From: Escherichia coli
GTDB lineage: Bacteria > Pseudomonadota > Gammaproteobacteria > Enterobacterales > Enterobacteriaceae
Direction: 5' to 3' (one strand)
Length of the DNA stretch: 64,000 nucleotides
Assembly (NCBI RefSeq): GCF_050920415.1
Contig: NZ_CP169309.1
Positions 23,928-30,967 of the stretch are shown piece by piece. Made by a program: the position numbers and the translations under genes. Each line of letters starts with the position of its first letter. Within the stretch, counting starts at the first letter, position 1. The notes under the pieces were generated by a model. That model saw only the letters and a list, made by a program, of their open reading frames with translations, made no database searches and was not told the DNA's origin.

Positions 23928-24227
23928 TCAGGAGATCATTAACCCGGATTCACCTTCCACGATCACACCACCATGTTCGGTGGTATCTCCCATACGGGCA
24001 ACGGCTTTACCGTTAATTTTGAGAACCGTTGAACCGGAAACAATAGTGTCTTTGCTACCGCTACCTTTGCAGGTGAGCTTATCACCCACCAACGCCAGCG
24101 GAACACCATTATACGTAACAAAGGTCTGCTGACATTCACTGACCGGGCCACCAATATGTGGGCGGGGGCCGGGATCAACTTTCGGGCAGGTATGGTTATG
24201 TCCTTTGAGTACCACGGCTTTACTCAT
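23928..24227 (-). CDS. PAAR-domain protein (T6SS spike tip)
   Basis: ORF 23928..24317 trimmed to the ATG preceded by AGGAGA: 99 aa MSKAVVLKGHNHTCPKVDPGPRPHIGGPV...GVPLALVGDKL...GKAVARMGDTTEHGG, Gly/Pro-rich PAAR-like repeats; start overlaps the upstream gene stop by ATGA. Confidence 0.7.
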   Translation of the reverse strand: MSKAVVLKGHNHTCPKVDPGPRPHIGGPVSECQQTFVTYNGVPLALVGDKLTCKGSGSKDTIVSGSTVLKINGKAVARMGDTTEHGGVIVEGESGLMIS

Positions 24228-24982
24228 CGTCTGTTCTCCTGCGCAGTTTTTGTGAATATGTCCAGAAGTCGCCAGTAAGCATACTCCTGTTGTCCCAGAT
24301 TCAGGCAACCATACCACCGTGGATGCAGAGGATCATCAAAACAACGAAATCCGTCATAATATTGGGCTACTGCCAGTAGCACTTCGGCCTGTCCGCCGGA
24401 TTCATAGCGGGATAGCGCCCGCCTTGCACTAGCCATCAGTTGTCGGTATATATTTTCATATAGCTCAACTGTTGGCGAAAAAGCCGTTCTTTTTTCCACC
24501 GTATACAGGCGGGTGAAAATCTGACCACTCCCCAGCCAGGCATTGTGATATTGGGGGATAATGCAGTGAGGCGTATCCGGCCCCCAGGAATGTTTATAGT
24601 GTTCACTAAGCCAGTCAACAGACCAGTCATCTTTATGTGCTATCAGGTATGCAGGTATAGTCTCATCTTGCGGGGATGTCTTTGCACTAATGTAGTGTTC
24701 AACAATTTTCTGCAATTCCGTATAGCGGACATCCTCCATAAAAAACGATCCCAGGCACAATCTGGCACTGGCAATATGTATAGCAAGCAATTGATCAGGA
24801 ACTTTTTGAGTCTCAGTCCATTGATAGCTCTGTCTGATTAATTCATCAATAGCGGATGCGGGAAGCTTTCTGTCGGTAATAACCTTACCAAAGCGGTTTA
24901 CCAGCCAGACGCGGCCCTTTTTCAGAAATTCCATCATCCGGTGCTCCGCCAGACTACGGTAAGTTGCTTCTGTTATCCTCAT
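24224..24982 (-). CDS. hypothetical cytoplasmic protein, 252 aa (T6SS operon member; immunity candidate)
   Basis: Intact ORF with GGAGAG RBS about 9 nt upstream of the ATG; no TM segment or signal peptide; position only. Confidence 0.55.
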   Translation of the reverse strand: MRITEATYRSLAEHRMMEFLKKGRVWLVNRFGKVITDRKLPASAIDELIRQSYQWTETQKVPDQLLAIHIASARLCLGSFFMEDVRYTELQKIVEHYISAKTSPQDETIPAYLIAHKDDWSVDWLSEHYKHSWGPDTPHCIIPQYHNAWLGSGQIFTRLYTVEKRTAFSPTVELYENIYRQLMASARRALSRYESGGQAEVLLAVAQYYDGFRCFDDPLHPRWYGCLNLGQQEYAYWRLLDIFTKTAQENRR

Positions 24983-25014
24983 GACTTCAGCCTCTCCCTT
25001 ACGCTATTGCAACA

Positions 25015-28306: not shown

Positions 28307-28322
28307 TTACACTCCTTTTTTG

Positions 28323-28898
28323 CTATATAAAGACCAGACTATTTTTTTCTTTTGGGTTTTCACAAATAATATTTGTCAGTCCGGTGGTAAATTCTGCAAA
28401 ATCGTCCGCAGGTAAAAAAGGAATAAAATCCCGCACTGTTTCAGGCGCATAATACCGGAACATGACCCACATTTTATTTACCTCATCATAAAGCTGATTA
28501 AATTTTCGCAGATGATGAGTCAGTTCATTCAGGGAAAGATAGCTGCGGATAAAAATACCCCAGCCATTACCCCGGCTGCTTCTTATCAGCCATTCCGTAA
28601 ATGGCTTATCTTTTTCCAGCCGGACGATATAAGGCGCATAAAGAGAAAACTGTTCTCCCAGTTCACCTTTCCATAAGCATGACCATTCCGTCTCATACGC
28701 ATCAAGTAAAACGGCAATATCCGGTTTTTTTAATGCATCAATGATGGCATAAGTGTGGCAGTCAGTTATTTTACTGGCAGATATCACTGATATATCATCA
28801 GATGCTGTTTTTTCCGGCATACTGAAAAGAAAGCCTGTCAGCGCATCCTGGTATAATTGTGTATCTTCCGGCACATCAATAATTTTCAGTCGGCTCAT
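28323..28898 (-). CDS. DUF4123-family T6SS effector adaptor/chaperone (Tap/Tec-like)
   Basis: 191-aa ORF whose ATG overlaps the vgrG stop (ATGA); size and position immediately 3' of vgrG match the DUF4123 adaptor pattern; family assignment is from context and general resemblance, not a search. Confidence 0.55.
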   Translation of the reverse strand: MSRLKIIDVPEDTQLYQDALTGFLFSMPEKTASDDISVISASKITDCHTYAIIDALKKPDIAVLLDAYETEWSCLWKGELGEQFSLYAPYIVRLEKDKPFTEWLIRSSRGNGWGIFIRSYLSLNELTHHLRKFNQLYDEVNKMWVMFRYYAPETVRDFIPFLPADDFAEFTTGLTNIICENPKEKNSLVFI

Positions 28899-30967
28899 TT
28901 TTTCCCGTCCTCTTCTTCGGCCTGTTTTGCTTTCGCACAGATTTCGCAGAACGGTTTGCCCTCATTCACCATCGCCGTCAGTGCTTCCACCTGATCCACG
29001 CCGCCGCCCCGGATATCCATTGCTGGCGTCAGGATCTGAAGTTTTTTTGCCTTTATCGTAACGCCACCACCATCAATGGTCAGACTGCCGCCAGGCCCGG
29101 CGATCACCAGTCGCTCTCCGGCGTGCATAATGTATTTATTGGTCTGCGAAAAAATCTTCGTATTTACCGTTTCATCCTTCACGCCCTGGATCACCACCGT
29201 TTTATTGCCGCCAATATCGTCCAGGGAATCAGCAAATATTTTCTTTCTTTCCGAACTGTTCACCACCAGCGTCCGGTTTCTGTCCACTTCGATTTCCTGA
29301 TCCTGAACCACCCGGACAACGGAGTTCCTGCCGATGGTTTCATAGTGATCCCGGCCCACATCTGTTTTCTTGTCCTGACCAATGGTTTCCTGCTGGTCAA
29401 CGCCCACGCTTTTGGCGCGGTTATTACCGATGGTATGGCTTTCATCGTGCAGAATTTCCGTCACATGGTCTTTCTGCGCGTGCATATAGACCTGTTCCCG
29501 GTTTGTGGCGTCTTCAAAACGCAGTTCATTAAAACCCTCGCCCCGGTAGGTCTGCGTGCGGATAGTGGTCTGCGTTTTCGTTTCCGGTAAATCCCCCGGC
29601 GAGCGATTTTTCTCATGGTAGGTGCGCCCCATGATGATCGGCTGGTCAGGATCACCGTTTAAAAAATCGACAATCACCTCCTGACCCACACGCGGAATGG
29701 CAAGATGACCAAATCCCGTCCCGGCCCATGGCTGTGATACTCTGATCCAGCAGGAACTGTTCTCATCCTGTTTGTGATAACGATCCCACAAAAATTTCAC
29801 CCGCACCCGGCCATGCTCGTCGCAGAAGATTTCCTCACCTTCCGGCCCGGTGACGACCGCTGGTTGTGGGCCATCCACTTTCGGCTTAGGCTGCGGCGTG
29901 GGACGCCAGGTTTTATCCGCTGGTATGGCCTGAAACGTATTCACCAGCGTGGTTCCCTGGCCCCGGCTTCCGGGAACGGCCTGCGGCTGCTCGCCGTGCA
30001 GTTCGCTGGCGATCACCTGCCATTCCCGGTTCAGATCGTCAGCCGGATGATCGGTCAGCGTAAAGCGCGTACCGGGCCACAGTTTTGGCGAGTTGCTGCA
30101 TCCCCTGGCGATCTCCGCATCATTGCGCCAGCCTTCCATCTGGTAACGGGTAAAATCTCTGCCATGCTGTTCGTCCTTAAAACGCCCCGGATAGTCCATC
30201 ACCTCATACTGGTTGCGCTGGCCGTTAAGACTGGCGGCATTATGGCGAAAACGCCCCGGCCAGTCAGGGTATTTGAAGGTGTAGTCTTTGCTGATGACAT
30301 ACGCCGGGCGTATCTGCGCACTGTGGCGGAACTGGCTGATATACTCCGTTTCCGTGGCGCGGGGTTCCGGGTTAAACGGAAGGGGGAAGGCTTCCGGCAG
30401 GTAGTAAACTTTATCGCAGAACACCAGCGGCTGATCCTTCCCTTCACGGGCGTGCTCTTCGTAAAAAAATATCCCTTCTTCCGCCAGCAGGCGGCAGAGA
30501 AAACCAAAATCAGTTTCACCGTACTGCACGCAGAACTCCCGCGCCGGATGAGGCTCGCCCAGCAGATAAGCCGTCTGCATCACCCGGTTGTCATCCAGCA
30601 GGTGCTTAATAATGGACTGAATATCCTGCTGCTGAAAATGGCGAAAATTTTCCCGCAGGCTGCTGCGCCAGAAAGGAGGATGCACCCGCAGGTAGTAGTT
30701 CATTTTATGACCGTCATATTCCCCGCGCTCAATCCTGGCTACCAGCCCGGTGATATGGCGCTGTGCGGTATTGTTTTGCCACAGGGTAAGCGTGGCATTC
30801 AGTTCCAGCAGTTCCGTAGATTTAAGGTGGATAGTGTCGCTGATGAGATGAAGATCGAGGGTGAATAATGCGGAGTAATGCTGGGTAAGATGAAAGTTTA
30901 CGACGGCAAAGGTTTCTGTATCAAAATCGCCGATATCAACGGTAAAACGGGTTCCTGTCCGGGGCAT
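28895..30967 (-). CDS. vgrG: T6SS spike protein VgrG
   Basis: 690 aa with hallmark VgrG segments: FYEEHAREGKDQ, VRVKFLWDR, WIRVSQPWAGTGFGHLAIPRVGQEVIVDFLNGDPDQPIIMGRTYH (gp27/gp5-like). Confidence 0.9.
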   Translation of the reverse strand: MPRTGTRFTVDIGDFDTETFAVVNFHLTQHYSALFTLDLHLISDTIHLKSTELLELNATLTLWQNNTAQRHITGLVARIERGEYDGHKMNYYLRVHPPFWRSSLRENFRHFQQQDIQSIIKHLLDDNRVMQTAYLLGEPHPAREFCVQYGETDFGFLCRLLAEEGIFFYEEHAREGKDQPLVFCDKVYYLPEAFPLPFNPEPRATETEYISQFRHSAQIRPAYVISKDYTFKYPDWPGRFRHNAASLNGQRNQYEVMDYPGRFKDEQHGRDFTRYQMEGWRNDAEIARGCSNSPKLWPGTRFTLTDHPADDLNREWQVIASELHGEQPQAVPGSRGQGTTLVNTFQAIPADKTWRPTPQPKPKVDGPQPAVVTGPEGEEIFCDEHGRVRVKFLWDRYHKQDENSSCWIRVSQPWAGTGFGHLAIPRVGQEVIVDFLNGDPDQPIIMGRTYHEKNRSPGDLPETKTQTTIRTQTYRGEGFNELRFEDATNREQVYMHAQKDHVTEILHDESHTIGNNRAKSVGVDQQETIGQDKKTDVGRDHYETIGRNSVVRVVQDQEIEVDRNRTLVVNSSERKKIFADSLDDIGGNKTVVIQGVKDETVNTKIFSQTNKYIMHAGERLVIAGPGGSLTIDGGGVTIKAKKLQILTPAMDIRGGGVDQVEALTAMVNEGKPFCEICAKAKQAEEEDGKK

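Follow-up and report, generated by a model that had tools for sequence, protein, structure and literature searches.

Seven genes lie packed on the minus strand between positions 23,928 and 30,967 of a 64,000-nucleotide stretch of an Escherichia coli chromosome (RefSeq contig NZ_CP169309.1, assembly GCF_050920415.1; "the window" below means this whole stretch). They encode a VgrG spike and a DUF4123 adaptor of a type VI secretion system (T6SS), then four proteins that we call A to D in the order of transcription, and finally a PAAR spike tip. The question raised by this locus is which of the four is the toxin, which one confers immunity to it, and what the other two are for. A first-pass annotation, following the usual logic of such operons, had taken the gene after the adaptor (A) for the effector, and the genes downstream of it for immunity genes. 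Sequence comparisons lead us to another assignment. The toxin is most likely B, of 341 amino acids (aa), and not the product of the gene after the adaptor. The model that we favour, giving it as a whole slightly better than an even chance, is that of an auxiliary T6SS spike-and-cargo module in which B would be the toxin, C its immunity protein, A a carrier and D an accessory protein.

Seven genes in one coupled operon

Seven open reading frames (ORFs) fill 23928-30967, all of them intact and placed where the first-pass annotation had them. With the two elements that border them, they are the following.

30968-31405: AT-rich spacer of 438 bp separating the divergent vgrG and tssF; presumed promoter/regulatory region for both operons
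28895-30967, minus strand: vgrG (TssI spike), 690 aa; TIGR03361
28323-28898, minus strand: tap, short DUF4123 (Tap/Tec) adaptor, 191 aa; RefSeq name, orthologs with PF13503
26972-28303, minus strand: protein A, undescribed family, 443 aa or, if begun at GTG 28306, 444 aa; proposed carrier or co-effector loaded by the adaptor
25947-26972, minus strand: protein B, 341 aa, undescribed family; proposed PD-(D/E)xK, PoNe-like nuclease toxin
25015-25944, minus strand: protein C, 309 aa, TTG start, undescribed family; proposed cognate immunity protein of B
24224-24982, minus strand: protein D, 252 aa, undescribed family; proposed accessory protein (co-adaptor or PAAR-linked chaperone)
23928-24227, minus strand: PAAR spike-tip protein, 99 aa; NF033420, orthologs with PF05488
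23717-23744, minus strand: GC hairpin followed by a T-run, reading aaaaagcgccctaaaggcgctttttt; likely operon terminator, ~185 nt past the PAAR stop

The tight junctions described earlier were all read again in the sequence: ATGA between vgrG and the adaptor gene, TAATG between A and B, and ATGA between D and PAAR. The stop of B is separated from the TTG start of C by a 3-nt gap, and the 32-nt spacer ahead of D contains a strong GGGAGAGG Shine-Dalgarno sequence. VgrG-adaptor-A-B-C-D-PAAR is one coupled operon, as the first-pass annotation had proposed from the junctions and ORFs. Its GC content is 54% in vgrG, 38-43% from tap to C, and 47% in D.

Some start codons differ between annotations. 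RefSeq starts A at ATG 28303, which gives 443 aa (444 aa in the first-pass annotation), and the ORF of PAAR mechanically begins at GTG 24317, the conserved start being the coupled ATG 24227. The TTG start of C is backed by the conserved N-termini of its orthologs. D has 237 aa in RefSeq, from ATG 24937. Because MR[IL]T is kept in all orthologs at ATG 24982, further upstream, and the Shine-Dalgarno sequence mentioned above precedes this ATG, the RefSeq form is probably too short, and the 252-aa form given by the first-pass annotation is probably right.

The spike components were also correctly named. VgrG scored 599.8 bits against TIGR03361 (cut-off 186, E = 3.9e-180) and 431.7 bits against TIGR01646 (cut-off 121.8), which identifies it as a T6SS VgrG (TssI). 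The adaptor, encoded straight after vgrG, is named DUF4123 by RefSeq, and its orthologs, 51-53% identical, carry PF13503. The PAAR protein, so named by RefSeq, matched NF033420 at E = 5e-9, below the equivalog cut-off, and its orthologs, 76% identical, carry PF05488.

The vgrG/tssF intergenic region has 30.6% GC, compared to 50.4% for the window, and is 72-78% identical between the two E. coli alleles of the locus (see next section), the flanking genes being 96-99% identical. We infer that it holds the promoters, although matches in a consensus promoter scan were not above chance. Downstream of PAAR, the hairpin abuts the edge of an Rfam RtT match at 23593-23718. It is visible in the sequence, though absent from the list of a consensus terminator scan whose terminator-like matches outnumbered those in shuffled sequences; we infer that it terminates the operon.

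Four undescribed families inherited as a unit

Proteins A to D had no match in Pfam, NCBIfam, PHROGs, PADLOC or the PDB sequences. Pfam was run on the single sequences and on every member of the enlarged family sets, and the PDB was searched with single sequences or profiles. In single-sequence library searches of A to D and their orthologs, nothing appeared below E ~0.03, and the six RefSeq protein accessions were mentioned in no paper of the literature searched. As far as these searches go, A to D belong to no described family, which is what the first-pass annotation had suspected of its four middle proteins.

The cassette is very rare. A single complete E. coli genome out of 5,426 contains it, and A is encoded in 2 of 100,044 species-representative genomes. 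A word search over 5.8 billion proteins gave 7 clusters for A and 6 for B, the B profile, run as a full hidden Markov model scan over 1.84 billion representatives, gave 23 proteins, and no B homolog was found in 72,556 plasmids. Wherever it occurs, its composition hardly changes: the order VgrG-DUF4123-A-B-C-D-PAAR is the same in K. spallanzanii, P. parmentieri, S. silvae and S. fonticola, in an Enterobacteriaceae metagenome-assembled genome (MAG), where it adjoins tssM, tssA and VasL, and in a second E. coli allele. Each cassette gene thus has orthologs, 35-77% identical and in the same order, in five other lineages. Three metagenomic contigs whose A and B are 22-30% identical to ours also keep the order over the genes that they cover (DUF4123 through D for one of them, a shorter part for the two others). 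Because such distant cassettes keep the same gene order, the architecture itself, and not only the genes, appears conserved, and by these comparisons the seven genes are passed on together across Enterobacterales.

Between the two E. coli alleles, the nine genes formed by the cassette, tssF and tssG are all intact, with ratios of non-synonymous to synonymous substitution rates (dN/dS) of 0.10-0.28. These values, together with the same-order orthologs in five lineages, argue that the genes are real and not chance ORFs.

Protein B is a predicted nuclease

An enzyme-like invariant signature was found in only one protein of the cassette, B. In an alignment of 17 members of its family, reaching down to 18% identity, residues E134, G182, D184, P195, K206 and Q229 were invariant, position 204 was always E or D, and W200 was nearly invariant. 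The resulting signature, E...G-L-D...W-x3-(E/D)-x-K...Q, maps as follows.

26223-26627, minus strand: predicted nuclease core of B, residues ~116-250, from the family alignment
26571-26573, minus strand: E134
26421-26423, minus strand: D184
26361-26363, minus strand: E204
26355-26357, minus strand: K206
26286-26288, minus strand: Q229

The sole notable match of the B profile in the PDB was 9waq_B (E = 0.031), over GxD...PPPP...ExK ('...GRGIDGIYQNTNPPPP--YVVTETK'). This chain is the PoNe domain of the Vibrio parahaemolyticus T6SS DNase VP14465, in which D335 is catalytic (PMC13377157, PMC6688995). The PoNe family motif, Kx3GE...GIDx2Y...Yx3ExK (PMC6688995; PMC13377157), is present in part in B, which has GE, G[LI]D and Wx3[ED]xK, and lacks Kx3 and x2Y. 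Comparison of B with PoNe fragments by hhalign gave a probability of 76.7% (P = 2e-5) over 55 columns, the PoNe side being limited to the three short fragments returned by a search from a 68-aa PoNe fragment.

An AlphaFold2 (AF2) model of B was of low confidence (predicted local distance difference test, pLDDT, of 48.7, from a 7-sequence alignment). It places the core residues in the order helix-strand-strand-strand-strand-helix, with E134 inside a long helix, D184 opening a strand, E204 and K206 on the strand after it, and Q229 in the helix that comes next; as modelled, this secondary structure would fit the canonical PD-(D/E)xK layout. Members of that superfamily conserve D...(D/E)xK, frequently accompanied by an E upstream and a Q downstream, on an alpha-beta-beta-beta-alpha-beta core. 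B is basic, with an isoelectric point (pI) of 9.7, in three of four lineages. We conclude that B is probably a PD-(D/E)xK nuclease that resembles PoNe. It would stand outside the PoNe family as defined, because its Kx3GE and x2Y submotifs differ and the gene downstream is not a PoNi.

Protein C behaves as the immunity partner of B

The two E. coli alleles differ very unequally along the locus. Amino acid identity is 99.5% for the adaptor, 98% for VgrG and PAAR, 97% for TssG and TssF, and 96.4% for D, and it falls to 86.5% for A, 78.5% for B and 73.3% for C. Synonymous divergence (dS) is 0.38-0.69 in A to C, about 0.1 in vgrG, D, PAAR, tssF and tssG, and 0.02 in tap. The raised values of A to C relative to the rest therefore indicate that a foreign block has recombined in. 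Divergence peaks in the C-terminal half of B and the N-terminal half of C, where the alleles share 45-59% nucleotide identity, and identity is back at 87-99% in the C-terminal half of C (87-98%), D and PAAR. The same contrast is seen among C orthologs, whose pairwise identity is 0.27-0.45 in the N-terminal half and 0.65-0.88 in the C-terminal half.

25570-25944, minus strand: N-terminal half of C (residues 1-125), hypervariable and proposed to determine specificity

Duplications and displaced copies in P. parmentieri concern the same two genes. One array reads B-C1-B'-C2-C3-D-PAAR (positions 12351-16182 of the retrieved stretch), where B' is a 161-aa in-frame remnant that lacks exactly the predicted catalytic core. 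C1 to C3 are paralogs, 56-67% identical, with nearly identical C-terminal ~90 residues and variable N-terminal halves, a pattern that suggests gene conversion, or else a fixed scaffold on which specificity modules can be exchanged. At a second P. parmentieri locus, an N-truncated B (205 aa, motif intact) overlaps a full C by 4 nt. This orphan pair, found on more than 20 contigs, has a transposase remnant as its neighbour, and vgrG, A and D are all missing from the locus.

C is acidic (pI 4.7-5.2) and, like D, is free of hydrophobic segments of the kind seen in signal peptides and transmembrane helices. An acidic protein devoid of membrane features is what would be expected of immunity to a toxin acting in the cytoplasm. 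B and C co-diversify, and displaced or orphan B fragments are accompanied by intact C genes, as in polymorphic toxin-immunity pairs. On this comparative evidence, C behaves as the immunity partner of B.

The possibility that C is a divergent PoNi was rejected. PoNi, a DUF1911 protein that may or may not also have DUF1910, lies downstream in ~90% of PoNe genes; no match to PoNi_N or PoNi_C (DUF1910/DUF1911) was found in 9 members of the C family, and hhalign gave a probability of 0.2% between the C profile and bona fide PoNi.

Protein A, carrier or toxin

A is encoded directly after DUF4123 in every cassette, the distant ones included, and this slot is the usual place of the cognate Tap-bound effector or cargo (PMC11582642). 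Its most salient features are a hydrophobic helix or hairpin, a 'GYNPLL' motif, and a Gly/Ala-rich tail of the GxxxG type after the helix, all conserved.

27284-27400, minus strand: hydrophobic helix or hairpin of A, residues ~302-340, by Kyte-Doolittle analysis

The 19-residue Kyte-Doolittle maximum of A reaches 1.86 in E. coli and 2.2 in orthologs, the other cassette proteins staying below 1.6. A could then itself be the toxin loaded on VgrG, for example a pore-forming or membrane-disrupting one, with B, C and/or D as immunity or accessory proteins. Its effector slot (PMC11582642), its conserved, strongly hydrophobic helix and Gly-rich tail, and its variation between the E. coli alleles (86.5%) would all suit such a role. 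Several observations do not. The wider A family has no conserved catalytic-type residues, and, A apart, the operon encodes no protein with the hydrophobic segments that immunity to a membrane-targeting toxin would call for. The enzyme-like invariant signature of B would be needless in an immunity protein, B-C pairs exist and duplicate without A, and D does not co-vary with A. We therefore regard a toxic A as unlikely, and the first-pass choice of the gene after DUF4123 as the effector was not upheld, since A has no conserved catalytic residues and the enzyme-like signature is in B instead.

Instead, A is probably an adaptor-loaded carrier or co-effector, or else a partner active on membranes, rather than a stand-alone enzyme toxin. 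We favour this role because of the lack of conserved catalytic residues, the hydrophobic helix, and the lack of any membrane or periplasmic immunity candidate in the operon. That the cargo carried would be B is suggested by the overlap of the two genes and by the conservation of their junction: the tail of A and the head of B are 96-98% identical between the alleles, with diverged sequence on either side. No MIX domain, which would have pointed to a co-effector, was matched by Pfam or NCBIfam in A and 6 other members of its family. Two further ideas about A were dropped. A 'THGS...GDDF' segment considered as a catalytic motif is lost in distant A homologs, and the notion of a swappable carrier serving various toxins found no support, a B homolog following every A found.

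A short adaptor, and protein D as a probable accessory

DUF4123 adaptors have a two-lobe design, in which a conserved N-lobe binds VgrG and a variable C-lobe binds the effector (PMC11582642). Judged by its length and its alignment to the Tla1 model, the 191-aa adaptor does not have this architecture. The E. coli protein gave a weak Tla1 match only (23.7 bits), limited to positions 19-129 of the 245-position model, and has no BLASTP similarity to the canonical DUF4123 protein of the same genome, which is 254 aa long. Because of its size, its partial Tla1 alignment and its shortness compared to the canonical protein, the adaptor apparently consists of the VgrG-binding N-lobe only and resembles the split TecT type. 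Split DUF4123 adaptors, TecT and co-TecT, are documented (PMC11582642).

Wherever it was found, D is encoded immediately ahead of PAAR, with which it has the ATGA overlap, and its conservation between the E. coli alleles (96.4%) is like that of the structural genes and not like that of A to C (73-87%). For these two reasons we consider D to be probably a conserved accessory protein, a candidate co-adaptor or PAAR-linked chaperone, and not an immunity protein. The co-adaptor role comes to mind because the adaptor matches only the N-lobe part of Tla1 and because split adaptors exist.

Alternatively, the operon may deliver two independent effectors, one on the VgrG end and one on the PAAR end, A being membrane-active with D as its immunity protein, and B a nuclease with C as its own. 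The presence of a pair of candidate toxins alongside two cytoplasmic proteins that could confer immunity, the translational coupling of D to PAAR, and the fact that D is the fastest-diverging protein between genera (35-43%) all agree with this. Nevertheless, D keeps 96% identity between the alleles where A falls to 86.5%, it is not adjacent to A and has no membrane features, and it is A and B that are translationally coupled, through a specifically conserved junction. We find a pair of independent effectors quite improbable, and keep D as an accessory protein. The earlier proposal that the downstream genes confer immunity is thus retained for C, as partner of B, and abandoned for B, the likely toxin, and for D, given its 96% conservation and accessory pattern. 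The locus stands nonetheless as a good candidate for an undescribed toxin/immunity system, with the roles reassigned.

The cassette lies on a mobile island in a strain with a complete T6SS

The cassette sits on an island of ~16 kb between xapR and the valU-lysV tRNA genes, the tRNA-Lys being lysV. Going outward from vgrG, the divergent region is followed by tssF, tssG, the isrK, C4 and EFASI RNAs, two integrase genes and tRNA-Lys.

31406-33253, plus strand: tssF, intact baseplate gene, divergent from vgrG (RefSeq)
33217-34281, plus strand: tssG, intact baseplate gene (RefSeq)
38250-39802, minus strand: island end, with an integrase gene (38250-39461) and tRNA-Lys (39730-39802) (RefSeq; tRNA confirmed by Rfam)

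tssF and tssG, the only two T6SS core genes that the island keeps, travel with the spike, and their dN/dS of 0.11-0.13 between alleles indicates purifying selection. A complete T6SS core cluster is present at aspV, on the same chromosome and 2.6 Mb from the island. It comprises tssBCEFG, tagH, tssJKL, clpV, tssA, tssM, two hcp and several vgrG cargo sets. Identity between the island and the aspV cluster is 52% for VgrG, 49% for TssF and 55% for TssG.

Such a locus could be a decaying remnant of a deleted T6SS cluster, of which tssF and tssG alone were kept and whose cargo is no longer used. Only these two genes adjoin the cassette before the P4-like RNAs and integrases are reached, among the 5,426 complete E. 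coli genomes the locus was seen in a single one, and identity between the island proteins and those of the resident T6SS is ~50%. Decay is hardly compatible with nine intact genes whose dN/dS is 0.10-0.28 between alleles, with a seven-gene set intact in six lineages, with a complete T6SS in the strain, or with the upkeep, in O145 strains, of an analogous tssG-tssF/vgrG/PAAR island with other cargo; we hold it to be very improbable. We conclude that this mobile island carries an auxiliary module, and not a stranded remnant. The word "orphan" used in the first-pass annotation fits only in part, as intact tssF and tssG stand divergently beside vgrG and a full T6SS cluster is found at aspV.

The O145 island just mentioned was observed in O145:H28 strains. 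It has the same tssF/tssG-vgrG-PAAR skeleton, inserted at tRNA-Asn, and unrelated cargo of 139 aa and 422 aa (positions 13661-16545 of the retrieved stretch).

Proposed mechanism

In the model that we favour, B would be a Mg-dependent PD-(D/E)xK nuclease toxin, distantly like PoNe DNase, with E134, D184, E204, K206 and Q229 as its proposed catalytic residues. The acidic, cytoplasmic C would neutralise B, its variable N-terminal half setting the specificity and its conserved C-terminal half serving as scaffold. The DUF4123 adaptor would hand A to the C-terminus of VgrG, and the non-enzymatic A would carry B non-covalently, so that the two overlapping genes would make a two-gene 'binary' effector. 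The hydrophobic helix or hairpin and the Gly-rich tail of A may help B across the inner membrane of the prey, or may add membrane damage of their own. D would stay in the producer, either as a co-adaptor providing the effector-binding lobe that is missing from the 191-aa adaptor, or as a PAAR-linked chaperone. The loaded VgrG-PAAR spike would be fired by the aspV T6SS, or by an assembly using the TssF and TssG of the island.

A number of points weigh against this model. The likeness of B to PoNe is local and modest (E = 0.031; hhalign 77%), and B does not exactly reproduce the Kx3GE stretch of the PoNe motif. C is not PoNi-like (hhalign 0.2%; no DUF1910/DUF1911 match), and the distant cassettes keep C (43%) and D (44-50%) better than B (~28%), which is unusual for an immunity protein. 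A too varies between the alleles, and so could be the toxin itself; the roles given to A and D come entirely from context and conservation. The VgrG, TssF and TssG of the island are only ~50% identical to those of the resident T6SS. Lastly, the AF2 models of B (pLDDT 48.7) and of A (pLDDT 44.8, 7-sequence alignment) are poor, and fold searches were uninformative. Structure-based confirmation failed because the alignments were too shallow, and the functional claims are consequently based on conserved motifs, a profile match of modest strength and comparisons between genomes.

A more detailed version combines all parts at once: an adaptor split into an N-lobe and D, A as carrier, B as a PoNe-like toxin, C as a new immunity fold, and TssF/TssG as a portable kit. 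D would then be the missing effector-binding or PAAR-linking lobe, the helices of A would insert in the membrane and ferry B, the N-terminal specificity half of C would be swappable, and TssF/TssG would let a foreign VgrG spike fire from a resident T6SS that is ~50% identical. That all of this should hold together is doubtful.

Relation to known systems

The closest parallel to B and C is the PoNe/PoNi pair of V. parahaemolyticus (V12_14465/V12_14460; PMC6688995, PMC13377157), which belongs to the same type of T6SS VgrG module with a PAAR nearby. PoNe proteins are characterised by Mg-dependent DNase activity and SOS induction. B shares with PoNe the GE in a helix, G-[IL]-D, a proline run and aromatic-x3-E-x-K, in addition to the local profile match, and C, like PoNi, is a downstream cytoplasmic protein of ~270-310 aa with a conserved C-terminal region. 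Unlike PoNe, B is a stand-alone protein of 341 aa with its own beta-rich N-domain, and not a C-terminal domain on FIX, MIX or Rhs; its submotifs are K-x2-Q-F-x-G-x2-G-E and G-L-D-x3-K, and it has an extra conserved helix motif at Q229. C has no DUF1910/DUF1911 similarity, and the conserved A and D, which belong to the cassette unit, have no counterpart in PoNe/PoNi.

The TseT-TsiT/PAAR4/TecT/co-TecT system of Pseudomonas aeruginosa, as far as the summary of Burkinshaw 2018 in PMC11582642 describes it, combines, as our cassette would, a nuclease effector of the PD-(D/E)xK class in one operon with a short conserved-lobe DUF4123 protein, an extra non-toxic helper and a dedicated PAAR. In that system the adaptor binds a PAAR extension, whereas here VgrG precedes the adaptor and PAAR is minimal (99 aa); no similarity to described families was detected for the helper candidates A (443 aa) and D (252 aa), and the gene order differs.

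In the VP1388-VP1390 binary module, a MIX co-effector and a toxin, two adjacent cargo proteins of a vgrG-linked operon with one immunity gene, are proposed to be co-loaded and co-secreted (PMC8728615), as we propose for A and B. The differences are that A has no MIX domain, that our toxin is a predicted cytoplasmic nuclease and not a periplasmic toxin, and that a DUF4123 adaptor is also present.

Two comparisons concern the toxin domain and the crossing of the prey membrane. The domain of TseT is Tox-REase-5. Tde1-Tap-1 of Agrobacterium tumefaciens is a DUF4123-dependent DNase with an N-terminal glycine-zipper translocation region. As our cassette would, it places a DUF4123-dependent nuclease cargo on VgrG, with hydrophobic or Gly-rich segments proposed for crossing the prey membrane. 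Tde1 unites both functions in one polypeptide and its toxin is of the HxxD type, whereas A and B are separate, unrelated genes. A T6SS auxiliary cargo module is a known type; the four families and their fixed carrier/toxin/immunity/accessory layout are new.

If the proposed roles are correct, B would open a new clade of nuclease toxins at the edge of the PoNe and PD-(D/E)xK group, C would represent a new immunity family, and two conserved helper families would join the T6SS repertoire, all of them now annotated as 'hypothetical'. The fixed four-protein layout would be tractable for studying how a toxin that acts in the cytoplasm and is not fused to its carrier is loaded and crosses the inner membrane. 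The pair of E. coli alleles, which differ almost only in A, B and C, offers a natural test of immunity specificity. The island also illustrates the movement of T6SS weapons between Enterobacterales at tRNA genes, and raises the question of why baseplate genes accompany the spike.

Other features of the island and of the chromosome

Past tssG, Rfam matches at gathering level were found for isrK (34376-34454), C4 antisense RNA (34476-34565) and EFASI RNA (36034-36162). These three RNAs are typical of P4-like elements, and are followed by helix-turn-helix and integrase genes and then by tRNA-Lys. The arrangement resembles a fusion of the T6SS module with an integrative element of the P4 kind. At the far edge of the island, between xapR and the PAAR gene, the RtT match (23593-23718, minus strand) scored 51.6 bits against a gathering threshold of 45. 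RtT RNA is normally part of the tyrT transcript; here it comes with terminator-like hairpins in duplicate, and may be a trace of the island boundary or a scar left by recombination. The second E. coli allele has a different flank on the RtT side, where xapABR and yfeN are absent.

An IS2 (IS3-family) transposase gene lies at ~16911-18139, between yfeH and yfeR, and an identical IS2 transposase (WP_088895425.1) interrupts the T6SS cargo region at aspV on the same chromosome (positions 15934-17162 of the retrieved stretch). Outside the window, the record contains a P4-like element with Drt3a/Drt3b antiviral reverse transcriptases (3980978-3984264), and a Flag-2 lateral flagellar cluster that a type II restriction-modification pair interrupts. 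In the main T6SS region (~4.114-4.119 Mb), IS21 splits the vgrG upstream of the 254-aa DUF4123 gene; downstream of this split vgrG come the canonical DUF4123, three DUF3304 genes and a Tle1-like phospholipase, a resident cargo set that the IS21 insertion may have inactivated.

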